This document shows, piece by piece, positions 21,896 to 51,974 of a stretch of DNA of 64,000 bases. A program made the position numbers and the translations under genes. Position 1 is the first letter of the stretch. Every line of letters begins with the position of its first letter. This DNA is from a bacterium (GTDB lineage: Bacteria > Patescibacteriota > Microgenomatia > Daviesbacterales > UBA10151), in contig JAJYNN010000002.1 of NCBI GenBank assembly GCA_021786315.1, positions 334,997 to 398,996 of the forward strand. Direction: 5' to 3'. Under the pieces are notes generated by a model that did not search any database, was not told where the DNA came from, and saw only the letters and a program-made list of their open reading frames with translations.

Positions 21896-22255
21896 ATGCT
21901 AGACAATGAAGAACTCATGCACAGAATTCACCAGGTCGGACAGAAAATTAGTGATGCAGCGACTTTAGAAGAGCTTTATTATTTTCAGGATGGCAATGCC
22001 CCGAAGGAGTGGATTAATTTAATGACTGCAGGTTTGTCCCAAACAGAGAAGGCTTTAATCAAGACTAATCTGGGCGTTATACGGAAAGCATTCCGGGTTG
22101 ATTTACCTTTAGGGTGGTTTCGGGAATTGGGCGTGGAGGGGTTGATGGATTTGCGGATTAACCGGCTGACACTGGCGGGGGCCAGGTTTTTTACCCGCAG
22201 TTTTCAAAAAGGAGAGTGGCCTGTTGAAGAAAAGGAACGACTAACTGACCGTTAA
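21896..22255 (+). CDS. hypothetical protein
   Basis: 119 aa; no motif. Confidence 0.35.
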   Translation: MLDNEELMHRIHQVGQKISDAATLEELYYFQDGNAPKEWINLMTAGLSQTEKALIKTNLGVIRKAFRVDLPLGWFRELGVEGLMDLRINRLTLAGARFFTRSFQKGEWPVEEKERLTDR

Positions 22256-22927
22256 GATCCTTTGTAAGTGAGCCAGATCTTTTTTGACTTCCACCGAGGC
22301 ATTGGGAAAATATTTTTGGGCCTCGAAGGCTGCCAGTTCTCCGTGGGTGTAATCAATTTCCCCTAGGATTAGTTTTGGTTTTAAACCTCTTTCGTTGATT
22401 TGGGTAAACAATTTTCTGTAAAGCTCAAAGCCGTCTTCACCGCCATCCAAAGCCACATGTGGTTCGAAGTCCTTAACGGAGGAATCCAGGTAATTGATCC
22501 TTTCTGTGGGGATGTAGGGAAGGTTGGTAACAATAATCAGATTTTCAGAATGTCGGAGTGTCGGAATATCAGATAGGAGGTTGCTGTGAATAAAAGTGAT
22601 TTTGTTTTCTACTCCGTGGAATTTGGCATTTTGCCTGGCCACATCCAAAGCTTTTTCGGAAACATCGGTGGCAATAACCTTAACATTGGGGGCATTTTTA
22701 GCCAGGGAAATGGCAATATTTCCTGTCCCAGTTCCAATATCCAATACAGTGACCTGATTTTGGGATTTGGCAAAATCCAAGACAGCGTCCACCAAAAGTT
22801 CCGTTTCCGGGCGGGGGATTAAGGCATCAGGAGTAACCTTGAATCTTAATTTATAGAACTCAACAAAACCTTTTATGTATTGATCAGGTTTAGAATTTTT
22901 ATCTGGCATATAATTTTCAATTAACAA
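22241..22927 (-). CDS. prmC: release-factor glutamine N5-methyltransferase (PrmC/HemK family), short form
   Basis: SAM motif 'VLDIGTGTGNIAISLA', 'TNLPYIP' (NPPY-like); immediately downstream of prfA. Confidence 0.75.
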   Translation of the reverse strand: MLIENYMPDKNSKPDQYIKGFVEFYKLRFKVTPDALIPRPETELLVDAVLDFAKSQNQVTVLDIGTGTGNIAISLAKNAPNVKVIATDVSEKALDVARQNAKFHGVENKITFIHSNLLSDIPTLRHSENLIIVTNLPYIPTERINYLDSSVKDFEPHVALDGGEDGFELYRKLFTQINERGLKPKLILGEIDYTHGELAAFEAQKYFPNASVEVKKDLAHLQRILTVS

Positions 22928-23025
22928 GTACCAATTTACAATGAATTTTCAAAAACTCAATGACCAAAAGTTTAAAAGTTTGAACATTGTAATTTATTTG
23001 AAAATTGTAAATTTAAAATTGGAAA

Positions 23026-23964
23026 TTATTTTTCTTGGTCTGCCTCCTGCAAGGCCTTAAAAACCGGTTCCATGCCGCCTTCCATAATAGTTTCCAGGTT
23101 GTACCAGGACTTGCCGATCCGGTGGTCCGTTAGCCGATTTTGGGGAAAATTATAAGTCCTGATTTTTTCGCTGCGGTCACCCATGCCGACCATACTCTTT
23201 CTGGCATCAGTAATCGAGCCAAACCTCTCCCGTTCCTCAATTTCCCAAAGTTTGGCCCGAAGGAGGGCCATGGCGTTTTCCCGGTTTTGCAACTGTGACC
23301 GTTCTGTCTGGCAGGTTACCACAATACCTGTAGGGATATGTTTTAACCTCACTGCAGTATTAACTTTATTGACATTTTGGCCTCCGGCCCCGCCAGACCG
23401 AAAAGCCTCAAACTCCACATCAGCCGGGTTGATATAGACCTCAGCTTCCGGGATTTGGGGAAGCACGGCTACGGTCGCAGTAGAAGTATGGACCCTTCCC
23501 TGGGATTCGGTTTCCGGAACCCTTTGCACCCGGTGGACACCGGATTCATACCTTAAGGCGCTAAAAGCGCCCTTGCCGGTAAACTTCATGGTGATCTCCT
23601 TAATCTGGCCGATTTTGCCCTCAGAACGGTCCAATTCCTCCATTTTCCAGCCCTGGTTGGCCGCATAGCGGGTGTACATCCGGAGTAAATCCCCGGCAAA
23701 AAGCCCGGCTTCATCACCGCCGGCAGCTGATCTTATTTCCATGATGGCAATATTGGGATTGATGTCAGAGTCGTCTGATGAATCTGATTCATCAGACGTA
23801 TCCATCGAGGTTGCAGCTGATTCCTGTAACTCTATCTTTTGCTGTTCCAGATCAGCAATTTCTGCTTTGGCCAGTTCGGCCAAGGTCGGGTCAGCAAGCA
23901 TCCCTTTTGCCTCCTCGATCTTTTTATCAATTTCGGCAATTTGTTGCTCAAGATAATCGTTCAT
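23026..23964 (-). CDS. prfA: peptide chain release factor 1, with acidic Ser/Asp-rich insertion
   Basis: GGQ motif '[27 protein letters not shown]', RF1-type '[17 protein letters not shown]' (PET in place of PAT/PVT). Confidence 0.9.
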
Positions 23965-24014
23965 ATGAGTATTATACCTCCCTCGTTAGGCAAAGACCGG
24001 GGAGTGGCGAGTAT

Positions 24015-24341
24015 CTAAGAAGCGGCGTTCTTTCGGGCGGCAAGAAGCAGGTCTTTCAAGGATGGTTTATCGCCTTTTTCGGTTTTAACTTTAGCCGCCC
24101 GGGCCTCCATGATTTTAGCCCTTTCAGCTTGTTTTTCCTGGGCAATCTGTTGTTTCTTGCCGAATTTTTCAACCTGGCCTTGGGTATCGACAAACTTTTG
24201 CTGTCCGGTAAAGAAAGGATGGCAGGCAGCGCAAATTTCCACCCGGATATTTTCCTGGGTGGAACCGGTGGTGAAGGCGTTCCCGCAAACACAGGTTACC
24301 TTGGCGTTTTTGTAATATGTAGGATGAACATTAGCTTTCAT
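24015..24341 (-). CDS. rpmE: 50S ribosomal protein L31 with Lys-rich C-terminal extension
   Basis: '[15 protein letters not shown]...[10 protein letters not shown]' Zn-ribbon L31. Confidence 0.9.
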
Positions 24342-24504
24342 AACCCGAGCATTATACCAAGAATAGATTGATCCTACAACCCTGCCTTTGTGAAGATAAT
24401 AATTTTCAAATATTTAAGCATTGAGAATTTATTGTAAATTTAAAATTGTAAATTGGAAATTTTAGTGCCGGTGGGCCTTAAGACTGTTAGGTCGCAAGGC
24501 GCAT

Positions 24505-25443
24505 TTAGTGTCTGTGCGCCTTATGGTATTTATGGGACTCTTTGGCCAGGGTGGTCCAGTAGGACCCCAGGCCGACAAGGATCGCCCCAATAATGAAGGT
24601 AAACCGCATCTGTTCACCCAGGATTGCCACCCCAAGAGTAATGGCTACCAGGGGCTCCAGATATTGGAACAGGTCGGCCTTAACTATTCCCAACTTCGAG
24701 AGTCCCCACTCAAAAAGGAAGTAAGCCGAGACGGAGGAGGCGATAGCGCTAAACAGCAGGCCGAAAAGCCCGATATACGTGACCTGGTGCACCCAGCCGG
24801 GATTTTTCAGGTATTCCGTTAAGGCGGGTACGGCAAAGGATAAAATTCCCACCAAAAAGATCATGGATGTCACGGTCAAAGTGGAATATTTTTGCAGCAG
24901 GCCTTTGGAAAGGCCGGCACCCGCTACCCAGGCGGCGGAGGCCAGGATAATTAAAATATTACCGATTAAGGCATTGGAGATGGGCTGTAAACCCAGGGCA
25001 AAATAGGGCACCCCAATGACTAATATTGCCCCAATTAACCCTAAAACGATCCCGATTAAGTTCACGGTATAGATCTTTTCCCTTAAAAACCACCAGCCGG
25101 CCAAAACCGAGAGCATCGGGATAACCATGGTTAGAACTGAGGCGGAGGTGACAGTGGTCCTTTGCATCCCGGTGTAAAAGAGGCCAATGTTCAGGGTAAC
25201 CATGAAAATGCCGACGGCAAAAAGTTTGGGCAGGTCTTCCCGGGCAAGCTTTGACTTTTTCTTCTCGGTTAAGATAAAAGGAAGAAGGAAGAGGATAGCC
25301 AGGATAAAACGCAGGAAAGCCAAAGACATCGGCGGAAATTCCTGCAGGGCCAGCTTGGCTACGACAAAGTTAATCCCCCAAATGGTGTGGGCCAGGACAA
25401 TGGCAAAATACGGCCAACTCTTTTTGAAGACATCGGATGCCAT
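24505..25443 (-). CDS. EamA/DMT-superfamily transporter
   Basis: 10 TM helices, duplicated EamA-like halves. Confidence 0.7.
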   Translation of the reverse strand: MASDVFKKSWPYFAIVLAHTIWGINFVVAKLALQEFPPMSLAFLRFILAILFLLPFILTEKKKSKLAREDLPKLFAVGIFMVTLNIGLFYTGMQRTTVTSASVLTMVIPMLSVLAGWWFLREKIYTVNLIGIVLGLIGAILVIGVPYFALGLQPISNALIGNILIILASAAWVAGAGLSKGLLQKYSTLTVTSMIFLVGILSFAVPALTEYLKNPGWVHQVTYIGLFGLLFSAIASSVSAYFLFEWGLSKLGIVKADLFQYLEPLVAITLGVAILGEQMRFTFIIGAILVGLGSYWTTLAKESHKYHKAHRH

Positions 25444-25472
25444 AATGTGAATTAAGAGTTATGAATTCAGAA

Positions 25473-25838
25473 TTAAGAATTATTCTTAGATTTTCTGATA
25501 ATCGTAACCAGTATTCTTATTATTTCATCATTCTCTTTGAGAAGTAAACCGAGCTCTTTTGAGTTAGTCAGTTTTGCCCTGGAAATTAAAGTTAACCAAT
25601 AATAAGTTTCCCTTGCCTCTTTTAATGCAACATTTAAAGAGTGGGTGAAGTCTTTTTTAGAGTGGGCACTTTGAGCTTCTTGAACATTAGCTCCGATTGA
25701 TGTTCCAGATCTGACAATTTGGGAAGCAATTGCATAACCAGCAGGTGTTTTAGGAAGGCTATTGACTAAGACGATAACTTCAATTGCAAACTCGATTGTT
25801 CTATCTGTGATATCAATTCTTAATTCATTATTCTGCAT
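25473..25838 (-). CDS. four-helix-bundle protein (23S rRNA IVS protein family, TIGR02436-like), free-standing
   Basis: 'IVRSGTSIGANVQEAQSAHSKKDFTHSLNVALKEARETYYWL'; 5' end overlaps hisS stop by 11 nt; AAGAATT repeats at both ends. Confidence 0.8.
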   Translation of the reverse strand: MQNNELRIDITDRTIEFAIEVIVLVNSLPKTPAGYAIASQIVRSGTSIGANVQEAQSAHSKKDFTHSLNVALKEARETYYWLTLISRAKLTNSKELGLLLKENDEIIRILVTIIRKSKNNS

Positions 25839-27030
25839 TCTGAATTCGATTTATCGCTTCATCAAGGGTGGCAGTTTGCTGGGTTTTGTTACTGAGGTCT
25901 TTTAAGGTAGCGGCGCCGTTTTCGGCTTCCTCCGGACCGATAATCACTACATAAGGTATCCCTTTTTGGTCGGCATACTTTAATTGTTTTTCCAGCCTGG
26001 TTTCAGGATCAAGCCAGATTTCCGAGTTTATCTTTTTTGAGCGAAGGGCTTCTAATACCTCAAGAGAATTATTGGCGAGCGCTGGGGAAAAGACGGTCAC
26101 TAAAACCTTGGCGGAAGATTTGAGGTTGGGAAGCAGTCCTTGGGATTCCAAAACTTCAACTGTCCGGTCAAACCCTAAGCCAAAACCTACGGCGGGGTAA
26201 TCAGTACCTGAGAAACTGCCGATCATCTTATCCCACCGACCGCCGCTGCAGATTGAGCCGGTGCTTCCCTCGGCAACAGTCTCAAAGATCATCCCTGTGT
26301 AATAATCCAAACCCCGGGCGAGGGTCGGCTCGTATTTCACTTTATTGGTATCTGCTCCCAGCTTTTCTAAAAGTTCAACAATTTGTTTGAGATTTTCGCT
26401 CATGGGGGTTTCCTGAAGTTTCTTTAAAGCTACTTTGGCATCCTCTTCGGCCATGCCTTTTTGGACCATCTCCGCCAAAACTTCGCTTTCACCGATCTTT
26501 TCCAGCTTATCAATGGCAGAAACGTATTTTTTGTCTAAACCCTCAAAATTTGCCCGGTCATTAACTTTAATGGTGACATTTAGTCCTAAGTTTTGGTAGA
26601 TGCCGAGAACCAAATTGAGAATTTCCGCATCAGCCAGGGGGGAGGAGGAACCGACAATATCGGCATCGCATTGCAAAAATTCCCTGTATCGGCCCCTTTG
26701 GGTATTTTCACCGCGGAAAACCGATTGGATTTGGTACCTTTTGAATGGTTTGGGAAGTTCGGGGTATTGAGCAATGACTCGGGCTAAAGGGACAGTTTGG
26801 TCATACCTTAAAGCTACCTCATCACCGCCTTTGGTTTGAAACTCATAAATCAGCTTTTCCTCCTCGCCGTATTTACCCTTTAAGACTTCGGCAAATTCCA
26901 AAGACGGGGTTTCCAGAGGCTCAAAGCCTAAAAGGCGGAAAGACTCCTTAATTTTGCCCAGCACATACTCCCGGGCGTTAGCCTGGTCTGGTAAGAGATC
27001 CCGGAAACCTTTTGGTGTAGCTGTTTTCAT
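25828..27030 (-). CDS. hisS: histidine--tRNA ligase
   Basis: class II aaRS HisRS pattern 'KGFRDLLP', 'RYDQTVPLAR', 'FRGENTQRGRYREFLQCD', C-terminal anticodon-binding domain. Confidence 0.9.
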   Translation of the reverse strand: MKTATPKGFRDLLPDQANAREYVLGKIKESFRLLGFEPLETPSLEFAEVLKGKYGEEEKLIYEFQTKGGDEVALRYDQTVPLARVIAQYPELPKPFKRYQIQSVFRGENTQRGRYREFLQCDADIVGSSSPLADAEILNLVLGIYQNLGLNVTIKVNDRANFEGLDKKYVSAIDKLEKIGESEVLAEMVQKGMAEEDAKVALKKLQETPMSENLKQIVELLEKLGADTNKVKYEPTLARGLDYYTGMIFETVAEGSTGSICSGGRWDKMIGSFSGTDYPAVGFGLGFDRTVEVLESQGLLPNLKSSAKVLVTVFSPALANNSLEVLEALRSKKINSEIWLDPETRLEKQLKYADQKGIPYVVIIGPEEAENGAATLKDLSNKTQQTATLDEAINRIQNAE

Positions 27031-27278
27031 CCTCTAGCTATTATCGCACAGGGTGTATCTGATTTACAATTATGGCCTATAATTTAGAGTTTTCGAGAAT
27101 TTAGAGGCTTTTTAAAAAGACTCATAATAAGTTGATTTTGAGGCAAAAAAGTTGTAGTATTGAACTGCAAAAAGGGCAAGCGGGGGTTGTTCACAACCCG
27201 AAGCGTGTTTAATTTGCTTACTTATATTTGCACATTAAATAATTTACAGATTTTAGGTTAGAAGGAGAAGGACTTGGG

Positions 27279-27665
27279 ATGAAAACTTGGAAAGTTGCTT
27301 TGGTGTTGGCGCTTATGTGGCTGGTGGCCGGAATTGTTCAATGGCAGGAAACTGGTATGTCCATGATTTTGGATATCCTCCTGATCATTGGGGCAGCAGT
27401 AGGGTTAATCTACATCCTGGTTAATGTAACAATGATGGCCTATTCCATTATGGAGAAGCCGAGAGGCTTTGTCGACTTGTCCCAAATGTTCTATCTGGCT
27501 TGTGGGGTAGTGGTGTCAGCGGTTGTTTTTACCTATGGTTTTGCAGTGATCCACAGCCGTGTGGGTTTAGGAGGCGAGATGGGTATTGATATTGCATTGG
27601 CCATCATTATTCTGGCTGGTGAATTTCATAACCGGCGGACACAGTCACTTCAGGAAGAAGGTTAA
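27279..27665 (+). CDS. hypothetical membrane protein
   Basis: strong SD AGGAGAAGGA; 4 TM helices. Confidence 0.45.
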   Translation: MKTWKVALVLALMWLVAGIVQWQETGMSMILDILLIIGAAVGLIYILVNVTMMAYSIMEKPRGFVDLSQMFYLACGVVVSAVVFTYGFAVIHSRVGLGGEMGIDIALAIIILAGEFHNRRTQSLQEEG

Positions 27666-27769
27666 GGAGGAGTCTGTAAATGAAATGGTAGTGATCAAGG
27701 AAAGCTAGTGTTGAGGCTAGTGGGGAGGATGCAAAGGCGCGTCCAACCGGCCGGCAACGATGCTGGTCT

Positions 27770-27802
27770 TTTTTCTTTCAGCCGGAGGCCTAAAAACCCT
27801 CC
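27770..27802 (+). terminator. rho-independent terminator
   Basis: stem AGCCGGAGG/CCTCCGGCT plus TTTTT; preceded by a second GC hairpin plus T-tract (27730-27767). Confidence 0.55.
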
Positions 27803-27869
27803 GGCTTTTTCGTGGAAAACCCCAATTCTTGCCAAAATAAAACTTTCCGTTGTATATTAAATAAACTCT

Positions 27870-28616
27870 ATGTCCTCAAACATCGACTACGCAATTATTC
27901 TTGCCGGCGGAAAGGGAGAGAGACTTCGGCCTCATACTGACAATAAGCCCAAACCAATGGTGGAGGTGGGAGGCAAACCAATCATTGTTTACCAATTGGA
28001 AAGACTTCAAAGTGTGGGGGTTAAGGAGGTAGTTATTGCTTGTAGCTATAAATGGGAGGCGATTAAGGAATATTTAGGAAACGGGGAGAAACTGGGGATG
28101 AAAATTAGTTATTCGGTGGAAACTGAGCCTTTAGGACGGGGCGGGGGTATCAAAAAAGCGATGCAATTTTTGCCGGACAATTGGGAGGATGCTTTAGTTT
28201 TAAACGGGGATATTCTTTCAAATTCCAGCTTAGAGGATCTAGTAGCCCAGCATTACGATAAAAAGGCCTTAGTTACCCTCACTGTTGTTCCCCTAAAGAG
28301 CCCTTACGGAATTGTTGAATTTAATGAAAATAACGAGGTTCTGGGTTTTCGGGAGAAACCCATTTTGCCGCACTGGATCAACGCCGGAATGTATGTCTTT
28401 TCAAAAGAGATAGAACCGCTTTTACCGGAGGTGGGGGACCATGAGACGGAAACATTCCCTAAGCTGCCGAAAGAAAAGTTCCTGGTTTTTCAAAGCGAGG
28501 ATTATTGGAGGGGAGTGGATACAGTTAAAGACTTAACCGAGGCTGAAAAAGAGGTTGTGGAGATTTTTGGCCAGCCTTCAGTTTCTGGTGGTATTGGTTT
28601 TACTCTTACTGCCTGA
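27870..28616 (+). CDS. sugar-phosphate nucleotidyltransferase (NTP_transferase family, e.g. mannose-1-P guanylyl- / glucose-1-P thymidylyltransferase-like)
   Basis: 'AIILAGGKGERLRPHTDNKPKPMVEVGGKPII' signature. Confidence 0.75.
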   Translation: MSSNIDYAIILAGGKGERLRPHTDNKPKPMVEVGGKPIIVYQLERLQSVGVKEVVIACSYKWEAIKEYLGNGEKLGMKISYSVETEPLGRGGGIKKAMQFLPDNWEDALVLNGDILSNSSLEDLVAQHYDKKALVTLTVVPLKSPYGIVEFNENNEVLGFREKPILPHWINAGMYVFSKEIEPLLPEVGDHETETFPKLPKEKFLVFQSEDYWRGVDTVKDLTEAEKEVVEIFGQPSVSGGIGFTLTA

Positions 28617-29396
28617 AACTTTTGGAGTGGCGGAAGGTGTAGCAACTTTGGCTGATGGTGTTGCCGTATTGGGTTTAAAGTTTGAGGTATAGGGCAGGAT
28701 ATAGATAAATTCAGCGTCAATTACCCCGCTTTTGGGGCTGACCCCGGCCACAATAATCGGTTTATTTTGTTTGACATCTGCAAATGAGGCTGTCTGGCTT
28801 TTGGCGGTTTTAAAGAGTGTCCCGGTGCCGACATTGATGGTGATACTCTGGTTTTCTTTGGTGGTTATCGTGAGAGTGCTGTCTTCAAGCGAGGTAATTT
28901 CCCCAAACACCGTTTTTCTTTCTTCCTCTTTAGGGGCGGTAAATTTAATGATTTTCTTGGCTGTTAAAACCGAGGTTTCGTCAACATCACCTAAAGCCAC
29001 GATATAGTCATCAACTACCAGGTCTTTAGAAGATTTACTCTTACCCGTTGATTTAACCAAGTTGACGTATTGGGTGTAGTCGTTGATATTGATTAGCCTT
29101 GTCCCTTTATCGGTGGCAATAGTAATTGCATCTTTGGAGACGGATTTAATAACCCCCACATAGGCCTTGTTTTGCAGTTCCTTAGTGACCTCGGATTTTA
29201 ACTTGGCTGCCCGGGAGGCAACCTCGTCCTGCAAAGCCTTAAGCTTGGCCTTTAAGTCCGGGCTGGAGGTGGCGATAGAGGTAGGTTCGGCCGCCCTGAT
29301 GGGCAGAATTAAGAATATAGAATTAAGAATTAAGAATGAAAGTAAAATCGCTATAAAATTCATTATTCTAAATTCAGAATTCCTAATTTTTTTCAT
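28578..29396 (-). CDS. hypothetical secreted protein
   Basis: N-terminal signal/anchor; Lys/Thr-rich; 5' end built on AAGAATT repeats. Confidence 0.4.
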   Translation of the reverse strand: MKKIRNSEFRIMNFIAILLSFLILNSIFLILPIRAAEPTSIATSSPDLKAKLKALQDEVASRAAKLKSEVTKELQNKAYVGVIKSVSKDAITIATDKGTRLININDYTQYVNLVKSTGKSKSSKDLVVDDYIVALGDVDETSVLTAKKIIKFTAPKEEERKTVFGEITSLEDSTLTITTKENQSITINVGTGTLFKTAKSQTASFADVKQNKPIIVAGVSPKSGVIDAEFIYILPYTSNFKPNTATPSAKVATPSATPKVSGSKSKTNTTRN

Positions 29397-29812
29397 ATTT
29401 TCTCCGTTGAATAATATACTATCCGGCTGTCGGTTTTACTGTTTCCCAGGTCGTCAAAAGCGGTAGTTGTCAGGTTGTTGACACCGGTTTCCAAATGCAG
29501 TGTTGTGGAAAAGTTGCCGTCGGAATTTGCCTCAAGTGAAGTGTACTCGTGGTTTAAGTCCAAAATTATTACGGCATTAGGGCTGGTTTTTCCTGAGATT
29601 AAAACACTGCTTTCAAAGCTGATGGAGTTGTCATCCGGGTTAGTAAGATCCAAGGTCAAGCTCACCGGTTCCCGGGTTACCGGTCCTTTATCCAAAAGCC
29701 CGGCTTGTTGGTTAGGATGTTGGTATTGAACGTTGAGGATGTAGTGCAGGCCTCCGGCAAAACCCAACCCCAAGACCACGATCGCAATTACTGCAATTAC
29801 AAAAACCCGCAT
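29393..29812 (-). CDS. hypothetical N-terminally anchored protein
   Basis: TM helix then 110-aa domain. Confidence 0.35.
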   Translation of the reverse strand: MRVFVIAVIAIVVLGLGFAGGLHYILNVQYQHPNQQAGLLDKGPVTREPVSLTLDLTNPDDNSISFESSVLISGKTSPNAVIILDLNHEYTSLEANSDGNFSTTLHLETGVNNLTTTAFDDLGNSKTDSRIVYYSTEKI

Positions 29813-29863
29813 TGCAGTTTTATATATTAAAGTTATATTGTTAGGCGGTCAAGTTTTATGTTA

Positions 29864-29945
29864 GTATCGGATAGTCGGAATATCGGCGTATCAGCATGTC
29901 GGAATATCTGACACACTGAAACTCTGATATACTGACACTCTGAAC
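29864..29945. repeat. degenerate period-8 tandem array (about 10 octamers; first half ..TCGGA, second half ..CTGA: imperfect palindrome)
   Basis: GTATCGGA TAGTCGGA ATATCGGC GTATCAGC ATGTCGGA ATATCTGA CACACTGA AACTCTGA TATACTGA CACTCTGA directly upstream of the MBL-fold gene. Confidence 0.55.
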
Positions 29946-29946
29946 T

Positions 29947-30588
29947 ATGGATATTTATTGGTACGGACAATCATGTTTCAAGATTAAAGGTAAAACTGCG
30001 TCGGTAGTTATTGATCCTTTTGACCCGGAAAAATTTGGGCTCAAATTACCTAAGGAATTGGAAGGACAGGTAGTTTTGGCTACCCATCAGCATCCTGACC
30101 ACAACAACGCGAATGCTGTTTCCGGTAATCCATTGATAATCGAAGGGCCGGGGGAATACGAGATCTCGGGTGTTAGTGTGGTGGGGGTACGGACCAACCA
30201 TGATGCCAGCGGGGGGACGGAGCGGGGGAAAAATACTCTTTATCACATTACCATGGACGGAATTGATATTGTTCATGTCGGCGATCTGGGGCATGTTTTG
30301 GCTGAGGAACAGACAAGTGAAATTGATAATGTGGATATTTTAATGATTCCTGTGGGAGGCAATTACACCATTGATTCTGAAACTGCCGCGAAAGTTGTAG
30401 CCCAATTGGAACCAAAAATTATTATCCCCATGCATTACAAGATTCCGGGTTTGACTGCCGAAGTTGAAGGTGTTGAGCCGTTCTTAAAAGAAATGGGAGC
30501 AGAAAATGTTCAACCACAACCCAAACTAACCATCACCAAGGATAAATTACCGGAAGAACCTGCCGTTATACTGCTCAGTAAAGTCTAG
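29947..30588 (+). CDS. MBL-fold metal-dependent hydrolase (UPF0173-like)
   Basis: 'LATHQHPDHNN' HxHxDH motif; 213 aa. Confidence 0.8.
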   Translation: MDIYWYGQSCFKIKGKTASVVIDPFDPEKFGLKLPKELEGQVVLATHQHPDHNNANAVSGNPLIIEGPGEYEISGVSVVGVRTNHDASGGTERGKNTLYHITMDGIDIVHVGDLGHVLAEEQTSEIDNVDILMIPVGGNYTIDSETAAKVVAQLEPKIIIPMHYKIPGLTAEVEGVEPFLKEMGAENVQPQPKLTITKDKLPEEPAVILLSKV

Positions 30589-30655
30589 ATTTAAGATTTA
30601 AGAATATAGATTTAAGAATGAGAACTCCTAAATCCTAAATCTTAATTCCTAAATC
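30589..30655. repeat. AGATTTAAGAAT / AAGAATT-family composite repeat (direct units followed by inverted units)
   Basis: 'agatttaagatttaagaatatagatttaagaat...aatcctaaatcttaattcctaaatct'. Confidence 0.5.
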
Positions 30656-30670
30656 TCTGTTGGAACTAAT

Positions 30671-32032
30671 ATGGCACAATCAACCGCAAAACTTCCGCCG
30701 CAAAATATTGAAGCTGAACAATCACTTCTGGGTGCATTACTCATTGATAAGGATGCCATTGTCCGCATTGCTGAAGCCTTAAGTCCAACCCACTTTTACC
30801 GCACTGAACAGCACGGGAAGATCTATGAGTCGATCATCGACCTGTACGAAAAAAGGGAACCGATTGATTTGGTTACCGTCACGGAAAAGCTCAAACAAAA
30901 AGAAGCGCTGGATTTGGTTGGGGGGCCGGCGTACCTTGCGACCCTGGTTAATACTGTTCCGACAGCGGCTCACGTTGAACACTACGCCCGGATTATCAAA
31001 GAACATGCGGTAAGAAGAGCCTTAATTTCCCAGGCTACAAAGTTAGTTGATATGGCCTATGATGAGGGTACTCCGGTGGGGGATATCCTGGAAAATGCCG
31101 AGGCCGGGATCTTTGCGGTTTCCCAGGCCAATGTCAAAAAGGATTTTGTGCCTTTGAAGGACTTGCTGACGGTGTCTTTTGACCGGCTGGATGAGTTGCA
31201 AAAGACTTCCGGAAAGCTTCGGGGAGTACCGACGGGTTATCGGGATTTGGACAATAAATTAGCCGGGTTCCAGGATTCCAACTTAATTATTTTTGCTGCC
31301 CGCCCGGGTCAGGGGAAAACCTCCTTTGTTTTAAATGTGGCCCAATATGCGGCGGTGAAGATGGGAATTCCGGTGGGGATTTTCTCTTTGGAAATGTCTC
31401 AGGAAGAGTTAGTGGACAGGATCATTGTGGCTCAGGCGGATATTGATGCCTGGAAGCTGAAAACCGGAAAGCTGGATGATGCTGACTTTGACCGGATTTC
31501 CCGGGCTTATGGAGAGTTGGCCGAGGCACCCTTGTTTATTGATGACACTCCGGGTATGTCTTTGGCGGAAATCCGGACCAAGGCCAGAAGGCTGCAGATG
31601 GAACACGGGTTAAGGATGATCGTGGTGGATTATTTGCAGCTTATTAAAGGCCGGGGAATTGAAAACCGGGTGCAGGAGGTTTCGGAAATTTCCCAGGGAT
31701 TAAAGAACCTGGCCCGTGAGCTGAAAGTTCCGGTTTTGGCGGTTTCCCAGCTTTCCCGGGCAGTGGAACAAAGGGGAACCAGGAAGCCGCAACTGGCGGA
31801 TTTGCGCGAATCCGGAGCCATTGAGCAGGATGCGGACGTGGTGATGTTTATTTACCGGGAGGATCCGGAAAATATGAAGGATACCACCTTGGCGATTGAA
31901 AAGCACCGGAACGGTTCCACCGGGGAGATTAAGTTAATGTTTGTGCCGGAAAGGATGAAGTTTTACGGAATGGAAAGAAGCCGGAGCAAACCGGTAGACA
32001 AGGAGGAAGGGGCCAAAACTGCCGCAGCGTGA
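30671..32032 (+). CDS. dnaB: replicative DNA helicase DnaB
   Basis: N-terminal DnaB domain plus Walker A 'ARPGQGKTSFVLN', 'DYLQLI'; 453 aa. Confidence 0.95.
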   Translation: MAQSTAKLPPQNIEAEQSLLGALLIDKDAIVRIAEALSPTHFYRTEQHGKIYESIIDLYEKREPIDLVTVTEKLKQKEALDLVGGPAYLATLVNTVPTAAHVEHYARIIKEHAVRRALISQATKLVDMAYDEGTPVGDILENAEAGIFAVSQANVKKDFVPLKDLLTVSFDRLDELQKTSGKLRGVPTGYRDLDNKLAGFQDSNLIIFAARPGQGKTSFVLNVAQYAAVKMGIPVGIFSLEMSQEELVDRIIVAQADIDAWKLKTGKLDDADFDRISRAYGELAEAPLFIDDTPGMSLAEIRTKARRLQMEHGLRMIVVDYLQLIKGRGIENRVQEVSEISQGLKNLARELKVPVLAVSQLSRAVEQRGTRKPQLADLRESGAIEQDADVVMFIYREDPENMKDTTLAIEKHRNGSTGEIKLMFVPERMKFYGMERSRSKPVDKEEGAKTAAA

Positions 32033-32259
32033 AGAAGCTTAAGTTAGGGAAGTACCAGCATTATAAGGGGGGAATGTATGAAGTTTTGGGGGTGGTACAC
32101 CATAGTGAAAGCCTGGAGGAGCTAGTCCTTTATAAGCAGCTTTACGTTTCTAATTTTCCCATTGGAACACTTTGGGTCCGGCCTCTAAAGATGTTTTTAG
32201 AAAGTGTGGAGCTAGACGGTAAAAAGGTCCCCCGGTTTAAGTATTTAGGAGAACAGTAA
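32029..32259 (+). CDS. DUF1653-like small protein
   Basis: 'KYQHYKGGMYEVLGVVHHSE..LVLYKQLY'. Confidence 0.6.
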   Translation: MKKLKLGKYQHYKGGMYEVLGVVHHSESLEELVLYKQLYVSNFPIGTLWVRPLKMFLESVELDGKKVPRFKYLGEQ

Positions 32260-32708
32260 TGCCTGAACTTAAAAAAGATTGTGGTCTTTGCTATATTCCG
32301 GAAAAATACCGCGATCTCACCATTGCTGAATTTGATCTTTGGAAGTGTAACTTACATGAAAGCCAGGTTTATCCCGGAAGAAGCTTAATTATTTTAAAGA
32401 GACATGTAGAGGATATTTTTGATATCACAAGGGAGGAGAAGCGGGAGTTAGAAGTGATTATTAGAGGTTTTAAGAGGGCTGTGGGGGAAGTGTTTTGCAC
32501 AGATATGTTTAACTATGCGGCTTTAGGGAATACGGTAAGGCATGCGCATTTACATTTTATCCCACGCTATTCTCATCCACTTGAATACGGCGGGGTTATT
32601 TTTGAGGATAGGAATCAGGGACAAAACTATGCCCCTTATGACAAGAACTTCCTGGTTCCCAAACCTGTTTTATTGGGGATTAGGGACTTGATTAGAGATA
32701 GGTTGTAG
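32259..32708 (+). CDS. HIT-family (histidine triad) nucleotide hydrolase/transferase-like protein
   Basis: 'HAHLHFIPRY' HxHxHxx motif. Confidence 0.6.
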   Translation: MPELKKDCGLCYIPEKYRDLTIAEFDLWKCNLHESQVYPGRSLIILKRHVEDIFDITREEKRELEVIIRGFKRAVGEVFCTDMFNYAALGNTVRHAHLHFIPRYSHPLEYGGVIFEDRNQGQNYAPYDKNFLVPKPVLLGIRDLIRDRL

Positions 32709-33320
32709 AAAACTTATTACATCTTCATCGGAGATTTGGGGGAAGTCGTCGTAGTAGGCTCCAACTGCCCCGGTAAAATTTTTTGGCGCATCCAGGGTAA
32801 TTACTTCATCGGCTTGGGTTTTAAGCTGTTCCACGACCTCAAAAGGGGCGACAGGAACAGCGACCACAGTTTTTCTGGCTCCCTGGTTTTGCAATTCATG
32901 GACTGCAGCCGAAATTGTCATCCCGGTGGCGATCCCGTCGTCAACAATCACGGCAATTTTCTCCTCGGCGGAAATGGGGTTTCTGCCATCCAAATAAAGT
33001 TGGTGACGTCTTTCAATTTCCCGGCGTTCGTCTTCAATTTCCTTTTCCAACCAGTATTGGTTTGCGTATTGGGCTCCTTCCTCGGAACACATCAGGTGTC
33101 CGGATTCGGAAATGGCGCAAACTGCAAACTCAGGGTTGGCCGGATGGCCGATTTTACGGACAAGAACCAAATCGAGTGGTAGGTGAAGCGCATTGGCCAC
33201 CTCGGCTCCGATAGCTACTCCTCCCCGGGGGATGGCGTAAATGACGGCGTCTTGGTCTTTGTATTTTATTAAGGCCTGGGCCAGCATTTTCCCGGCCTCA
33301 ACCCTGTCTTTAAACCTCAC
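32670..33320 (-). CDS. phosphoribosyltransferase-domain protein
   Basis: PRPP-binding 'VIVDDGIATGMTISAAV'. Confidence 0.6.
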   Translation of the reverse strand: MRFKDRVEAGKMLAQALIKYKDQDAVIYAIPRGGVAIGAEVANALHLPLDLVLVRKIGHPANPEFAVCAISESGHLMCSEEGAQYANQYWLEKEIEDERREIERRHQLYLDGRNPISAEEKIAVIVDDGIATGMTISAAVHELQNQGARKTVVAVPVAPFEVVEQLKTQADEVITLDAPKNFTGAVGAYYDDFPQISDEDVISFLQPISNQVPNPQ

Positions 33321-33439
33321 TGGTTAAGGATAAAACATGGAAAATTTTGGGGCAATAAAGAGGATTACACAGTTAGGTGTGTTTCAAGGTGACGCCTTAT
33401 GAACTGCAGAAAGTTCATGACAAGTAGGTTTGCTTAAGG

Positions 33440-33445
33440 TATAAT
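33440..33445 (+). promoter_or_regulatory. -10 element (TATAAT) for tRNA-Leu
   Basis: TATAAT 9 bp upstream of the tRNA 5' end. Confidence 0.35.
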
Positions 33446-33454
33446 TACCTTCAT

Positions 33455-33536
33455 GCCGAAGTGGCGGAATGGTATACGCGGTGGTCTCAAAAACCACTAG
33501 TCGCAAGGCTGTGTGGGTTCGACTCCCACCTTCGGC
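33455..33536 (+). tRNA. tRNA-Leu (class II, long variable arm; anticodon most likely CAA)
   Basis: acceptor GCCGAAG/CTTCGGC, D-arm 'GTGGCGGAATGGTATACGCG' typical of tRNA-Leu, T-arm GTGGGTTCGACTCCCAC; CCA not encoded; anticodon stem irregular. Confidence 0.75.
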
Positions 33537-33671
33537 ACAGTGAGGGTACAATTCCGACGTTAGTCGGAACAGGATCTTTGCCGTAGGCAAAGTAGCCCTA
33601 CTCCCTCTCTCGGCACTTTTTCATGGTCTCTGCTTGCCAAAGTAAGAGTGCCCTTGTAAAATACACAGCGT

Positions 33672-34232
33672 ATGATTAATGCCAGCGAACTTCGAAATGG
33701 GATGGTTTTTCAGGATGAAAACCAAATCCTGCAGGTGGTAAATTATGAGCACATCAAGATGGGCCGGGGTTCCGGTACCATCAAAGTTAAGGTTAAAAAC
33801 CTAAAAACCGGTTCCGTAACCGAGAAATCCTTTATTACCGGAGCCAGGGTGGAAGAGGCCAACGTGGAGAAGAAAAAGGCCCAGTTCCTTTACCAGGATG
33901 GGGAAGAGTACTACTTTATGGATTCCGTTTCCTTTGAGCAATTCCCGCTTTCCAAGGATGTTTTGGGGGACCAGGCCAAGTTTTTGCAAGACGGTTTGGA
34001 AGTGCAGCTCATTGTCAACGGTGACCAGGCTTTGGGGCTGGAACTTCCCAACAGCTTGGTTTATGAAGTTATTGAAACCGGCCCGGGGGAGAAGGGGAAT
34101 ACGGTTTCCAACGTTTATAAAGACGCCAAAGTGGATAACGGCTTAATTATTAAAGTCCCGATGTTTATGAAGATTGGGGATAAGGTTAAAGTTGATACCC
34201 GCACCGGCCAATATGTGGAACGGGTGAAATAA
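33672..34232 (+). CDS. efp: elongation factor P
   Basis: 'GMVFQDENQILQVVNYEHIKMGRGSGTIKVKVKNLKTG' KOW-like N-terminus; 186 aa. Confidence 0.95.
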   Translation: MINASELRNGMVFQDENQILQVVNYEHIKMGRGSGTIKVKVKNLKTGSVTEKSFITGARVEEANVEKKKAQFLYQDGEEYYFMDSVSFEQFPLSKDVLGDQAKFLQDGLEVQLIVNGDQALGLELPNSLVYEVIETGPGEKGNTVSNVYKDAKVDNGLIIKVPMFMKIGDKVKVDTRTGQYVERVK

Positions 34233-34331
34233 TTCTCAATTTTAAATTTTAAATTTCCAATGAATTTTCAAGGCATTAATGTTTAAAAATTAGAAATTTA
34301 ACCCTGAACCTGATATAGTTATCACTAAAGT

Positions 34332-43366: not shown

Positions 43367-44132
43367 AGTCATCTTTGAAGCCCCTTCCTTCCTGGTTTTA
43401 GATAAACCCCCGGGACTTGTTACCACTTCCTCTGAAACCCAGAAAGAGCCTTCCCTGGAGGATATTTTAAAGTCGGAATTTAGGATTAATGTTGATCGCG
43501 GAGGCATAGTTCACCGGTTAGACAAGGATACATCCGGGCTTTTGGTGGTGGCCAAAACCCAAGGTGCTTTGGAAAACCTGCAGGCCCAATTTAAAAACCG
43601 GGAAGTCAAAAAACAATATCTGGCTTTGGTTCACGGGGCCATTACTGAAGCGGGAAAAGTGGAGGTACCCATTGGCAGGAATCCCGGAGACCGGGAAAAA
43701 TTTGTGGCGGACCCAAATGTTCCTAATGCCCGGGAGGCGGTGACACTGTATGAACCGGTGCAAAATTTTCAATTTTCAATTTTCAATTTTCAATCAATCT
43801 TCAATGATTTAAATAAAATTCAAACAAGAAAGTTGGAAAGATCTCAGTATGGAATTTTTACGCTGCTCCGTTGCTATCCTCAAACTGGACGGACGCACCA
43901 AATTAGGGTACATTTAAAATACATCGGATTTCCCATCGTGGGGGACGGGAAATACGGTGGCCGGAAAACGGGCAGGTTAGACCACAGGTGGTGTCCCAGG
44001 CAGTTTCTACACGCTGCCAAGTTAGAGTTTAATGACCCCCAGACTGGAGAAAGATTGAGCTTTGAAAGTGAGCTGCCCGAGGATCTGCAGCAAGTTTTGA
44101 AGCTCCTGCAAGGTGACGCCTTGCACGAGTAA
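43359..44132 (+). CDS. RluA-family pseudouridine synthase carrying an in-frame repeat-derived insertion
   Basis: 'GIVHRLDKDTSGLLVVAKT', 'TGRTHQIRVHL'; insertion 'QNFQFSIFNFQSIFND' encoded by (CAATTTT)x4. Confidence 0.8.
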   Translation: MVKVIFEAPSFLVLDKPPGLVTTSSETQKEPSLEDILKSEFRINVDRGGIVHRLDKDTSGLLVVAKTQGALENLQAQFKNREVKKQYLALVHGAITEAGKVEVPIGRNPGDREKFVADPNVPNAREAVTLYEPVQNFQFSIFNFQSIFNDLNKIQTRKLERSQYGIFTLLRCYPQTGRTHQIRVHLKYIGFPIVGDGKYGGRKTGRLDHRWCPRQFLHAAKLEFNDPQTGERLSFESELPEDLQQVLKLLQGDALHE

Positions 44133-47361: not shown

Positions 47362-47437
47362 TCTAATTTTCAATTTACAATTTTCAATTTTCAAATTTTG
47401 AAAATTGGATCATTAAAAATTCATTGTAAATTGTTAC
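47362..47437. repeat. AT-rich intergenic element (AATTTTCAATT ... ATTGTAAATT family) with 11-bp A/T palindrome
   Basis: 'taattttcaatttacaattttcaattttcaaattttgaaaattgg...cattgtaaattg'. Confidence 0.5.
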
Positions 47438-48199
47438 TTGGTAATTGAAAATTTTCTATTTATGCTTATTTGGATTGCGCTTTTTTTAATTGTTTTGGCA
47501 ATTTCTTTGGTTTTGGCAATTCAGTCAATGGCTGACTACGAAACCCGCCCGGCACACTTTAGCACTCCCTACACCTTGTTTTTGGTTACAAAAGAAAAAG
47601 AGCTGAATCAGGATATACTACAAGACCTACACCGGAGTTTGCTGCAAAAGGGGTTCATTTTGTCGCTGGAAAGGCTATTTCGCGGGGGTAGGCGGGCTTT
47701 GGTGTTATATGGGCCATCGGCAATTTTAAAACCCTTAAGTGGGCGTCTGGGGCTTATCGAACTGGAGGATTACAGCAAAAGGGAAATCAAACCCGGACAA
47801 GGTGTTGTTGCCTGGGAAGTTGGGAGAAAGGCACAGGATGATAAGCTGGTTGTGGGAAATATTTTTCAAAACATACCGGAATTTACGGAGGAGGAAGAAT
47901 TTTGGTGGCAGGTTGTGACCCAACCCACTAAAGATTCCTTTAAATCAATTATCCGGGCGGTAGTTTTAGCAGTGGATCAGCGGCGGGCTTCGGCCTTGCA
48001 AAACGAACTTCTGCAAATTGGCAAAGATAAGGGGCTATCTTTGCTTCCTCAAGCCTATTCCACGCCCCAAATGGTCAAACTGTACCAAGACAGAAGTATA
48101 CCGGTGAACTTTTTTTCTAAAGGGCCCAAAGGGGTAATTTTAAACTTGCAGCCTGATGAGCTTCAGTCCCTGCTTTCTTCCTCGTCGGTTTCAACCTGA
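47438..48199 (+). CDS. hypothetical N-terminally anchored protein
   Basis: TM helix then 220 aa; no motif. Confidence 0.4.
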   Translation: MVIENFLFMLIWIALFLIVLAISLVLAIQSMADYETRPAHFSTPYTLFLVTKEKELNQDILQDLHRSLLQKGFILSLERLFRGGRRALVLYGPSAILKPLSGRLGLIELEDYSKREIKPGQGVVAWEVGRKAQDDKLVVGNIFQNIPEFTEEEEFWWQVVTQPTKDSFKSIIRAVVLAVDQRRASALQNELLQIGKDKGLSLLPQAYSTPQMVKLYQDRSIPVNFFSKGPKGVILNLQPDELQSLLSSSSVST

Positions 48200-49743: not shown

Positions 49744-50499
49744 ATGTCAGGGCACAGTAAGTGGTCGCAAATTAAAAGACAAAAAGGTATGGCTGACGTT
49801 AAGCGTGGGGCAACTTTTACTAAATTGGCCAATGCCATTACTATTGCTGCCCGTTTAGGTGGTTCCGGTGATCCCAATTCCAGCCCCAGGCTTCGTATGG
49901 CTGTTGAGGCTGCCCGTCAGGTAAACATGCCCAAAGATAACGTTCAGCGGGCCATAGATCGTGGTTTAGGAAAGCTTCCCGGACAAGTCTTGGAAGAGGT
50001 GGCTTATGAGGGATTTGGCCCAGGTAAAGTGGCCTATCTTATTGAGGGTGTCACTGACAACCGTTTACGGACTAACCAGGAAGTAAAGAACCTTTTTGAC
50101 CGGGCCGGCGGGGCTTTGGGTGGACCGGGCAGTACCGCCTATATGTTTGACCGGAAAGGGGAGATCAAAGTAAAAACTAGGGGTGGCAATAAGGATGATG
50201 AATTACTGGAGCTCATTGATCTTGGGGCAGACGATGTGGAGGACTTTGAAGAGGATAATATACAAAAGTATTTAGTATATACAGAAGGCTCAGAATTAAA
50301 TACTATGGGTACAAAAATTACTCAGGCTGGGTTTGAAATAGAGGAGCAGGATTTAACCTATAAACCGAACATGGTGACAGAAGTAAAAGATGCCAATGTA
50401 GCGCAAAAGGTAATGGAGTTTACGGAAAAATTAGAAGATTTGGATGATGTCCAAAAGGTATATGCAAATTTTGATATACCTGATGAGATGGTGGAATAA
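49744..50499 (+). CDS. yebC: YebC/PmpR-family DNA-binding regulator
   Basis: 'MSGHSKWSQIKRQKG..D.KRG..F.KL...I..AAR.GG.DP..N..L'. Confidence 0.9.
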   Translation: MSGHSKWSQIKRQKGMADVKRGATFTKLANAITIAARLGGSGDPNSSPRLRMAVEAARQVNMPKDNVQRAIDRGLGKLPGQVLEEVAYEGFGPGKVAYLIEGVTDNRLRTNQEVKNLFDRAGGALGGPGSTAYMFDRKGEIKVKTRGGNKDDELLELIDLGADDVEDFEEDNIQKYLVYTEGSELNTMGTKITQAGFEIEEQDLTYKPNMVTEVKDANVAQKVMEFTEKLEDLDDVQKVYANFDIPDEMVE

Positions 50500-50596
50500 T
50501 TTTCAATTTTTAATTCTTAATTTTCAATAAATTTTTAATGTTTAAATTTTAAAAATTAGAAATTCACTGTAAATTGGAAATTTTAAATTAGAAATT
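50500..50596. repeat. AT-rich intergenic element (AATTTTCAATT ... CACTGTAAATTGGAAATT family)
   Basis: shares sub-motifs with 22928-23025, 24372-24470, 34233-34331, 47362-47437. Confidence 0.5.
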
Positions 50597-51148: not shown

Positions 51149-51152
51149 AAGA

Positions 51153-51968: not shown

Positions 51969-51974
51969 ACCCGA

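Follow-up and report, generated by a model that had tools for sequence, protein, structure and literature searches.

Intervening sequences (IVS) of ribosomal RNA are inserts that are removed when RNase III cuts their stem, as published experiments have shown. In Coxiella, the IVS carries two to three tandem GACAGAT heptamers 5' of the open reading frame (ORF) for the S23p protein; the copy number of the heptamer varies among strains, RNase III cuts at the first repeat, and the ORF is decaying (PMC4990558). Heptamer repeats also form inverted arrays in Xanthomonas (PMC4692102) and are abundant in Beggiatoaceae (PMC4679880). Tandem repeats of 7-8 nt, such as the short tandemly repeated repetitive (STRR) sequences and the heptameric simple-sequence repeats (SSRs) of Xanthomonas, belong to the most common features of bacterial intergenic DNA that lack an explanation, and PF05635/TIGR02436 is among the largest small-protein families without a known role outside diversity-generating retroelements. 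Here, we describe octamer arrays in a stretch of 64,000 nucleotides of contig JAJYNN010000002.1 (hereafter, the window), whose host appears, from the names of its closest protein relatives, to be an uncultured member of Candidatus Daviesbacteria. We hold with moderate confidence that these arrays form the stems of tandem-repeat palindromes of the IVS type that lie outside rRNA, with and without PF05635 cargo. The layout of such an element would be a purine-rich array of 7-8-nt units, a loop or a cargo, and a complementary array, the characteristic cargo being a gene for a PF05635 four-helix-bundle protein.

Read in this way, the octamer set of the window would comprise one palindrome with a decaying cargo (52886-53303), two cargo-less palindromes (29864-29945 and 51975-52047), and two one-armed fragments (52281-52350 and 22534-22576), to which the following features belong:

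29864-29906, plus strand: left arm of palindrome A, five units in the TCRGA orientation, pairing with 29907-29945
29907-29945, plus strand: right arm of palindrome A, five reverse-complement units (TCTGA/ACTGA)
51975-52047, plus strand: palindrome B, with a left arm (51975-52003), a loop, and a right arm (52010-52047)
52281-52350, plus strand: array C, one-armed, with about 8-9 degenerate units, located where a conserved non-coding region is variable
22534-22576, plus strand: one-armed array of five units (TAATCAGA TTTTCAGA ATGTCGGA GTGTCGGA ATATCAGA), with TCRGA cores at an exact spacing of 8
52886-52930, plus strand: left arm of the cargo-bearing palindrome, TCRGA units, its end lying 2 nt away from the enclosed gene's stop codon; conserved in the related locus L240
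53268-53303, plus strand: right arm of the cargo-bearing palindrome, reverse-complement units, 85% complementary to 52906-52925
52933-53235, minus strand: cargo gene, a truncated PF05635/TIGR02436 four-helix bundle ('23S rRNA intervening sequence protein') of 100 aa
52254-52276, plus strand: outer inverted-repeat partner, TAGCCTCGAATGTGGATAACTAT, just left of array C, pairing with 53308-53330
53308-53330, plus strand: outer inverted-repeat partner, pairing with 52254-52276

An earlier note on this DNA, made from the sequence alone, had listed five arrays (29864-29945, 51975-52050, 52281-52368, 52890-52932, and 53271-53303), and head-to-tail octamers were found at all of them; a sixth array, at 22534-22576 inside a coding gene, was absent from that list. 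Approximately 40 units yield the consensus R-T-R-T-C-R-G-A, in which the core T-C-R-G-A, five of the eight positions, is conserved and kept in a fixed 8-nt phase. Tandem Repeats Finder called a period of 8 at 29865-29908, 29907-29944, 51976-52000, 52282-52312, and 53276-53299. Pairs of TCRGA/TCYGA cores, counted on both strands, numbered 15 at spacing 8, 9 at spacing 16, and 7 at spacing 24, and no other spacing in the scanned range of 5-32 was prominent; in 100 dinucleotide-preserving shuffles, the mean was ~0.25 pairs per spacing (0.23 at spacing 8) and the maximum was 3. A phase-8 chain detector found six arms in the window and none in 50 shuffles. The period-8 signal is far above chance relative to shuffled sequence (15 vs 0.23 pairs), and the dispersed repeat class with a fixed-phase octamer core that had been proposed is supported. 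An assembly artefact, which had been considered as well, is contradicted by two independent Logan assemblies from different runs, which are 100% identical to the window over 22934-34265 and 50921-64000 and in both of which the arrays are internal to contigs. The copy number proposed for comparison between strains is the same in other assemblies of the same organism, and it is in the nearest relatives (79-82% protein identity) that the unit numbers differ. Searches of Rfam at the gathering threshold, covering the window, 18 loci with similar hairpins, and three relatives, returned only tRNA and chance matches, as did a search of positions 51900-53400 at E<=5. The statement that the arrays match no known named repeat family therefore holds insofar as neither an Rfam match nor a description in the searchable literature was found, and has to be amended insofar as they can be linked to rRNA IVS and STRR-like heptamers.

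Palindromes A and B are compact, with TCRGA units first and reverse-complement units second, and a mismatch or small internal loop interrupts the pairing about every 8 nt. The halfway switch to the reverse-complement unit noted earlier is thus a property of 29864-29945 and 51975-52047, and not of 52281-52350, which is one-armed. Folded as RNA, palindrome A reaches -37.8 kcal/mol (z -7.0) on the plus strand and -29.3 kcal/mol on the minus strand, and palindrome B reaches -32.4 kcal/mol (z -6.1) on the minus strand and -23.4 kcal/mol on the plus strand; the RNA fold of array C is no better than that of shuffles (z -0.2). As DNA, A and B fold much more weakly than as RNA (z -1.6 to -4.4). Of the hairpins and cruciforms that had been envisaged, RNA hairpins far beyond the shuffles are predicted for two arrays, and the DNA cruciform is no better supported than these.

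The location of these palindromes could also suggest that they are RNA structures selected by the host, namely factor-independent terminators, intercistronic processing sites, or mRNA-stabilising stem-loops, to which the association with PF05635 would be incidental. Palindrome B starts 7 nt past the stop codon of a DUF5656 gene (51153-51968), a position conserved in L240, heptamer palindromes fill many spacers of the window from stop to start (30587-30656, 47365-47453, and 50498-50597), and the z-scores of the folds are strong. Nevertheless, no T-run is present 3' of the octamer stems, and a terminator scan finds none at the arrays. Palindrome A stops 1 nt before the ATG (29947) of a gene encoding a protein of the metallo-beta-lactamase (MBL) fold, so that it does directly abut this start codon as first described. 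On its other side is a promoter-like -10 box, and the orthologues of the gene are almost leaderless; a terminator would be badly placed here. The earlier description 'just upstream of genes' applies only to this array; the array at 51975 begins past a stop codon. Moreover, one array lies within a coding region, the arrays are missing from 662 kb of related genomes in which the same genes are expressed, and convergent gene pairs are not in excess around such arrays elsewhere. We therefore regard host-selected RNA structures as an improbable explanation. A promoter or terminator function was likewise set aside, because consensus scans at the arrays gave scores no higher than expected from shuffles.

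The coding-region array (22534-22576) is located in a minus-strand ORF for a PrmC-like methyltransferase (22241-22927), in which it is translated in frame as LSDIPTLRHSENLI, part of a variable loop that directly precedes the NLPY motif and ranges from 18 to ~65 residues in length among orthologues. The closest methyltransferase orthologue (L119) has a similar peptide and one unit-like TTATCAGATATT, with no periodicity or array. The argument from a period of 8 not being a multiple of 3 is weakened by this in-frame translation.

The arrays at 52886-52930 and 53268-53303 had been taken as separate; they are instead the two arms, left and right, of a single long-range palindrome that encloses a gene. 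What the earlier note lacked was the PF05635 gene between these two arrays, together with the heptamer arrays around two further PF05635 genes. Flanks were compared by an inverted-repeat score, i.e., the local alignment of the upstream flank with the reverse complement of the downstream flank, which was used instead of RNAduplex energies of 116-nt flanks because these were too noisy. The arms of the cargo-bearing palindrome score 29, compared to a control 95th percentile of 21, and the right-arm stretch 53271-53299 is also 93% complementary to 51975-52003, the left arm of palindrome B. The cargo matches Pfam with E=1.4e-10 only at positions 47-105 of the PF05635 profile and TIGR02436 with 41 bits at positions 43-107; only the C-terminal 60% of the profiles is matched, and a deletion of ~20-22 residues (helix 2) is visible in the alignments. 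An outer inverted repeat of 23 nt, 87% complementary, brackets everything from array C through the right arm, resulting in a compound region.

This architecture recurs around PF05635 genes elsewhere. All three PF05635 genes of the window lie between inverted tandem arrays, and among the loci fetched, all PF05635 genes with complete flanks are bracketed by inverted arrays of 7-8-nt units, the unit differing from locus to locus:

25449-25847, minus strand: heptamer sister element, inverted (GAATTMA)n arrays (25449-25482 and 25815-25847) around an intact PF05635 gene (25473-25838)
59457-59887, plus strand: heptamer sister element, inverted TAAGGGG/CTTACCC-type arrays (59457-59489 and 59864-59887) around an intact PF05635/bAvd-like gene (59490-59864)
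L069 and L104: PF05635 cassette with the unit GTGTCAGA/CTTTGACA
L115: PF05635 cassette with the unit GTCACAA
L082: PF05635 cassette with the unit ATGCATT
L124: PF05635 cassette with the unit GTGAATT
L156: PF05635 cassette with a GGGTAAG-like unit

Four of these loci (L069, L104, L115, and L082) were found via the octamer pattern and hence are not independent, whereas L124, L156, the genes of the window, and a set of plasmids are. The plasmid set is a repeat-blind sample, obtained by tblastn of plasmid records, of which 12 matches were inspected. The pattern is present in Nostoc punctiforme (GGAGTCA), Picosynechococcus, Stanieria, Riemerella (GGTTCAA), Geminocystis (GGGAAAA), Leptolyngbya, and Anabaena sp. 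90 (GGTGACA); in Pseudanabaena and Gemmatirosa, the arrays are direct and not inverted, and the PF05635 genes of Calothrix and Nostoc PCC 7120 have no clear array pair. In Azospirillum (L205), the PF05635 insert lies within bacterial large-subunit rRNA (Rfam 680 bits) and is thus a classical 23S IVS, with arms of (CRGAGGA)n and its complement. Among 21 PF05635 genes, the flank inverted-repeat score exceeds the 95th percentile of 502 control ORFs in 17 and the 99th in 14 (Mann-Whitney p=1.6e-9), and a strong 7/8-nt periodicity of the flanks is seen for 77% of PF05635 genes vs 18% of controls.

The arms also share a polarity. Of the 18 cassettes whose inverted repeat is significant, 17 have a purine-rich upstream arm and none has a pyrimidine-rich one. 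Because a palindrome reads alike on both strands, this purine-first polarity belongs to the element and not to the orientation of the gene, and it puts GGAG- or AGGA-like strings 5' of the cargo in either cargo orientation. In other genomes, the pairing partner of cargo-less TCRGA arrays is located downstream in 46 loci and upstream in 3, which is the same polarity.

These flank data bear on another explanation, by which the arrays would be plain SSRs generated by polymerase slippage, with an inverted layout and PF05635 neighbours that have no significance. Such an origin would be in line with the over-representation of 7-8-nt SSRs in many bacterial genomes (PMC4692102 and PMC4679880), the variation in unit number between species, the presence of a unit-like octamer in the ancestral sequence at both new sites, and the finding that arrays of permuted octamers are about as common in viral contigs. 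However, slippage yields direct repeats and no complementary arm, yet the arms pair at z -6 to -7; inverted arrays flank PF05635 genes far more than controls (p=1.6e-9); a purine-first polarity of 17 to 0 and 46 to 3 is unexpected from slippage alone; and the unit family occupies six sites in 64 kb and none in 662 kb of relatives. We regard simple slippage as quite improbable.

Two neighbourhoods of the PF05635 cassettes were also noted. The hisS ORF ends inside the right heptamer arm of the element at 25449-25847 and overlaps the start of the cassette gene (25828-25838), which indicates that the insertion supplied a new hisS stop codon. On the cyanobacterial plasmids of Picosynechococcus (L200), Pseudanabaena (L203), and Anabaena sp. 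90 (L210), the PF05635 cassettes lie within CRISPR-cas operons, at the cas10-cmr3 and cas6-cas4 junctions, a location that may account for the family being reported as 'CRISPR-linked' in large surveys (PMC10910872).

Relatives provide both filled and empty sites for comparison. A sample of related Microgenomates (80 loci, 662 kb, 47-73% identity in the MBL-fold protein) held no RTRTCRGA arrays with either a strict or a sensitive detector. Arrays in relatives, five in L240 and one in L244, are all at the orthologous DUF5656 locus, and the octamer arrays are restricted to one Daviesbacteria subclade. At the MBL leader, the site is empty in L238 and L239, which read TAGTATCGAACCGATG / GGTCAAGTTGTATGGTAGTATCGAACCGATG, i.e., TAGTATCG^AACCGATG; the window reads GGTCAAGTTTTATGTTAGTATCG, then a palindrome of 72 nt, and then GAACTATG. 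Palindrome A is also absent in L235-237 and in ten more distant MBL orthologues. The orthologues without the palindrome have a conserved -10-like box ~8 to 25 nt before the ATG. Palindrome A is therefore an insertion into a start that had hardly any leader, and the ancestral GTATCGAA shares 7 of 8 positions with the unit GTATCGGA. The hisS-eamA junction, into which the heptamer-armed element at 25449-25847 is inserted in the window, measures ~5 bp and has no cassette in L235-238.

The DUF5656 locus has a longer history. In L240-242 (82% DUF5656 identity), array C, the palindrome past the stop codon, and the two arms around the PF05635 gene are present, as is a further array that the window lacks, and the PF05635 orthologue of L240 is intact (119 aa, 72.6 bits). 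The right arm of the window (53268-53303) is one unit (8 nt) longer than that of L240. Palindrome B keeps its position in L240 with different units and arm lengths, and the orthologous hairpin there folds at -43.3 kcal/mol (z -7.1). In L244 (72% identity), the arms are kept around a gene remnant of ~170 nt, and in L245 (70% identity), the conserved non-coding sequence is present with neither arrays nor gene. Array C is present in L240, its segment is deleted in L244, and other sequence stands there in L245. The locus is a decay series, from cargo-bearing to nearly cargo-less, in which the arms outlast the cargo and the units turn over, and the octamer family is older here than at the other sites of the window.

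Filled and empty orthologous sites would also be expected of non-autonomous elements resembling repetitive extragenic palindromic (REP) sequences or miniature transposable elements with inverted repeats (MITEs), whose mobilisation would depend in trans on a transposase encoded elsewhere, for example a REP-associated tyrosine transposase (RAYT) of the IS200/IS605 type or that of another insertion sequence, PF05635 being a passenger. The arrays are dispersed, palindromic, mostly intergenic, and lineage-restricted; in other genomes, they lie mainly between co-directional genes (39 vs 8 divergent and 7 convergent), as REP elements do, and a gene within inverted copies recalls RAYT genes flanked by REPs. 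The flanked gene, however, encodes a four-helix bundle and not a Y1 transposase, a transposase is absent among the Pfam-annotated neighbours, no defined ends were found, and no clear target-site duplication was seen at the filled-vs-empty site. Furthermore, the arms are internally tandem and their unit number varies by arm and species, unlike REP heads or MITE terminal repeats, and the unit sequence differs in every PF05635 cassette, which fits local array evolution better than recognition by one enzyme. We consider mobilisation of this kind unlikely.

A non-coding region of ~850 nt (52050-52890), 3' of the DUF5656 gene, is conserved in four Daviesbacteria and has these counterparts:

L240: 1560-2290
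L244: ~1300-2010
L245: ~5790-6480

Invariant blocks of this region are TGATATAGTTTGAT, ATGTGGATAACT, GACTGCTAA, CACGCGTGAAAA, and ATGTCGCACAATGT; a perfect DnaA box, TGTGGATAA, lies at 52264-52272 within ATGTGGATAACT, and a promoter-like TTGATA-17-TATAGT lies at 52222-52250. A terminator-like hairpin (52653-52670) is changed on both sides in L240, from GGTCGC/GCGACC to CCGGAC/GTCCGG. No Rfam match, tRNA, or tmRNA was found in 52050-52890, and the region could be a non-coding RNA of unknown type or a chromosomal site. A replication origin was considered and rejected, because the DnaA box is single, with no cluster, and the GC skew changes in the terminus direction. The conserved palindrome ATGTCGCACAATGTATCTTATGCGACGT (52594-52621) resembles a dif (XerC/D) site, with two ~11-nt arms around TGTATC, and matches ~23 of 28 positions of the dif consensus. 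A half copy, GTCGCACAATATT (53299-53311), directly follows the right octamer arm on its 3' side, as it does in L240 and L244. Between 50 and 64 kb, the GC skew is positive up to ~52 kb and then zero or negative, and a gene for a Xer-type tyrosine recombinase is located at 58542-59459; the area around 52 kb may be the replication terminus region.

With this setting in mind, the arrays might instead be iterons bound at the DNA level by a regulator, by the four-helix-bundle protein itself, or by a factor associated with the terminus or Xer, for promoter use or chromosome processing. The fixed phase with a core conserved at five of eight positions, the abutment of palindrome A on a promoter-like -10 box, and the position of the densest cluster in a conserved non-coding region with a dif-like palindrome, where the GC skew changes sign, would suit such sites, and the PF05635 relatives (Avd) bind nucleic acids (PMC10053308). 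Still, a period of 8 bp does not match the helical repeat of DNA, the cargo gene beside the octamers is truncated in this genome, the units are wholly different between PF05635 cassettes with no common recognition motif, and one array lies within a coding region. No specific evidence favours DNA-level iterons, which we consider very unlikely.

Another set of repeats in the window is composed of AT-rich heptamer palindromes at 22911-23027, 29305-29382, 30587-30656, 43764-43839, 47365-47453, and 50498-50597, spanning many spacers from a stop codon to the next start. Their units are AATTTTC/GAAAATT, AGAATTA/TAATTCT, and AGATTTA/TAAATCT, and several are pyrimidine-first, unlike the palindromes of the PF05635 type; they may be a separate class, e.g., terminators. 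The first ~30 codons (29305-29396; MKKIRNSEFRIMNFIAILLSFLILNSIFLIL...) of the minus-strand ORF at 28578-29396 (272 aa) are encoded by a heptamer palindrome, so that either the called start is wrong or the repeat array supplies an N-terminus resembling a signal peptide.

Returning to the IVS-type palindromes outside rRNA, which we favour, a mechanism could be proposed by analogy with the rRNA inserts. The arrays would lengthen and shorten by replication slippage, which the differences in unit number between species fit, and either selection or intrastrand template switching would keep the arms complementary. A unit-like octamer was already present in the ancestral sequence of both new sites (the MBL leader and the methyltransferase), suggesting that copying is seeded by microhomology. 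Cargo-less palindromes would derive from cargo-bearing ones, as MITEs do from transposons; the purine-first polarity common to empty and loaded palindromes and the decay series fit this derivation. Once transcribed, the palindrome would form a long stem, imperfect through a mismatch roughly every 8 nt, and would be cut by RNase III, detaching the insert from the host RNA and making an insertion tolerable in operons, leaders, and rRNA. Such detachment would account for the tolerance of the cassettes between hisS and eamA and, on cyanobacterial plasmids, at the cas10-cmr3 and cas6-cas4 junctions. Most likely, the elements are selfish or neutral and affect mRNA processing as a side effect.

Several observations weigh against this reading. 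The window has no rRNA gene according to Rfam, only a tRNA, so that the elements are not IVS in the strict sense. The RNase III signature motif ERLEFLGD was not found in a six-frame translation of the 64-kb window, and no mobilising enzyme was found. No clear target-site duplication emerges when the filled site is compared to the empty TAGTATCG^AACCGATG, the relatives being only 76-79% identical in the neighbouring protein. Four of the 21 PF05635 genes are without inverted arms, and several AT-rich heptamer palindromes in the window are pyrimidine-first. The strand that folds better is inconsistent, as A favours the plus strand and B favours the minus strand in the window and the plus strand in L240, and among the 21 PF05635 cassettes, the sense RNA is more stable in 13 and the antisense RNA in 8; the asymmetry of G-U vs A-C pairs gives no consistent strand of action. 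The four-helix-bundle protein of the window is only 26% identical to those of the octamer-flanked L069 and L104, which are 70% identical to each other, and is thus not specially similar to octamer-flanked relatives, so that joint travel of arms and cargo is not supported. Permuted control octamers are about as frequent in viral contigs as the real unit (9 matches vs 8 and 6).

The last point also concerns the distribution of the unit. When reference genomes were scanned for three RTRTCRGA units, >117 loci from many phyla were obtained, but one octamer family across phyla was dropped because permuted octamers are about as common, and those loci illustrate the general architecture only. Hairpins in metagenome-assembled genomes of Nitrospirota, Nitrospinota, and Omnitrophota have GTRTCAGA left arms and CTTTGAYA right arms, with one G-U pair per unit on that strand. 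Of the 117 matches to the octamer pattern, 32 are <300 bp from a contig end, suggesting that such arrays often break short-read assemblies.

A wider proposal, which we offer only tentatively and regard as possible rather than probable, is that PF05635 genes together with purine-first tandem-repeat palindromic arms form one widespread, unrecognised class of element. The 23S IVS would be its best-known site, with cyanobacterial STRR-type arrays and the octamer and heptamer palindromes of the candidate phyla radiation (CPR), Nitrospirota, Omnitrophota, and Bacteroidota as derivatives without cargo; the arms would serve for self-excision by RNase III at the RNA level, so that the element does no harm in rRNA, operons, and leaders, and the Avd-like protein might help the spread, e.g., with a reverse transcriptase or by stem binding. 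One architecture ties 7-8-nt repeats, PF05635, and rRNA IVS together from CPR to cyanobacteria and Alphaproteobacteria. If this link holds in a full survey, many 'orphan' repeat families would have a common origin, and a concrete function of the arms would be suggested, namely the RNase III-mediated detachment of the insert from host RNA. In practical terms, the arrays can mislead gene callers, either by being translated or by supplying stop codons, and can break assemblies.

A general link between PF05635 and tandem-repeat palindromes, octamer versions, extragenic IVS-type elements in CPR, and cargo-less derivatives were not found in the searchable literature, which omits most subscription journals. 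The novelty would lie in an octamer, extragenic, CPR-borne version of the known IVS-type architecture, and an earlier description may exist.

Among known systems, two could be set aside from the layout and the gene content. A CRISPR array has identical 24-48-nt repeats with unique spacers, whereas the units here are 8 nt, head-to-tail, and have no spacers. For a diversity-generating retroelement, the RVT domain is absent among the Pfam-annotated genes of 22.9-34.3 kb and 50.9-64 kb, no search being aimed at a pair of template and variable repeats, none of the three PF05635 genes has a reverse transcriptase nearby, and DivGenRetAVD scores are 23.7 and 18 bits compared to a cutoff of 80.

REP sequences, with bacterial interspersed mosaic elements (BIMEs) and REP doublets forming hairpins (REPINs) associated with RAYT, resemble the window elements in being short, imperfect, extragenic palindromes, often in operons and lineage-specific, and in having a gene within inverted copies. 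They differ in that the gene flanked here encodes a four-helix bundle, the arms are tandem-periodic, and no conserved GTAG-type head is present. MITEs share the occurrence of cargo-less beside cargo-bearing copies and a decay series across relatives, but no transposase-bearing parent is known here and no clear target-site duplication was seen. REP/RAYT and MITEs are thus functional analogies only. As with the Rickettsia palindromic elements, one copy is translated in frame in a loop of a host protein; in contrast to them, this copy has a single arm and takes the place of a similarly long loop instead of adding a domain.

The STRR of heterocystous cyanobacteria and the heptameric SSRs of Xanthomonas and Nostoc are closer, as dispersed, mostly intergenic arrays of 7-8-nt units whose length varies among close relatives. 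Some of the heptameric SSRs occur as inverted pairs that could fold into stem-loops (PMC4692102). On plasmids of Nostoc, Anabaena, and other cyanobacteria, PF05635 genes are bordered by heptamer arrays, as in the window; the STRR literature examined holds no link to PF05635 genes or IVS. The differences are the host, a CPR Daviesbacteria, and the period of exactly 8 with the unit RTRTCRGA, although separate heptamer families do occur in the window.

The closest counterpart is the 23S rRNA IVS with an S23p/PF05635 ORF, known from Leptospira, Coxiella, Brucella, and Azospirillum (L205). The window elements do not occupy helix 25 or 45 of rRNA but a 5' leader, a position past a stop codon, a conserved non-coding region, an operon junction, and a coding gene. 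The octamer class has a unit of 8 nt and not 7, and excision by RNase III, demonstrated for IVS, would apply here by analogy. The PF05635 ORF itself is present at 52886-53303 and not at the cargo-less palindromes at 29864 and 51975. Shared with the IVS are a long stem of terminal inverted repeats around a PF05635 gene, arms of tandem units with the purine-rich arm first, which are 7 nt in the IVS ((CRGAGGA)n in L205 and two to three copies of GACAGAT in Coxiella), a variable number of units, an ORF prone to decay, a sporadic and lineage-specific spread, and the existence of ORF-less versions.

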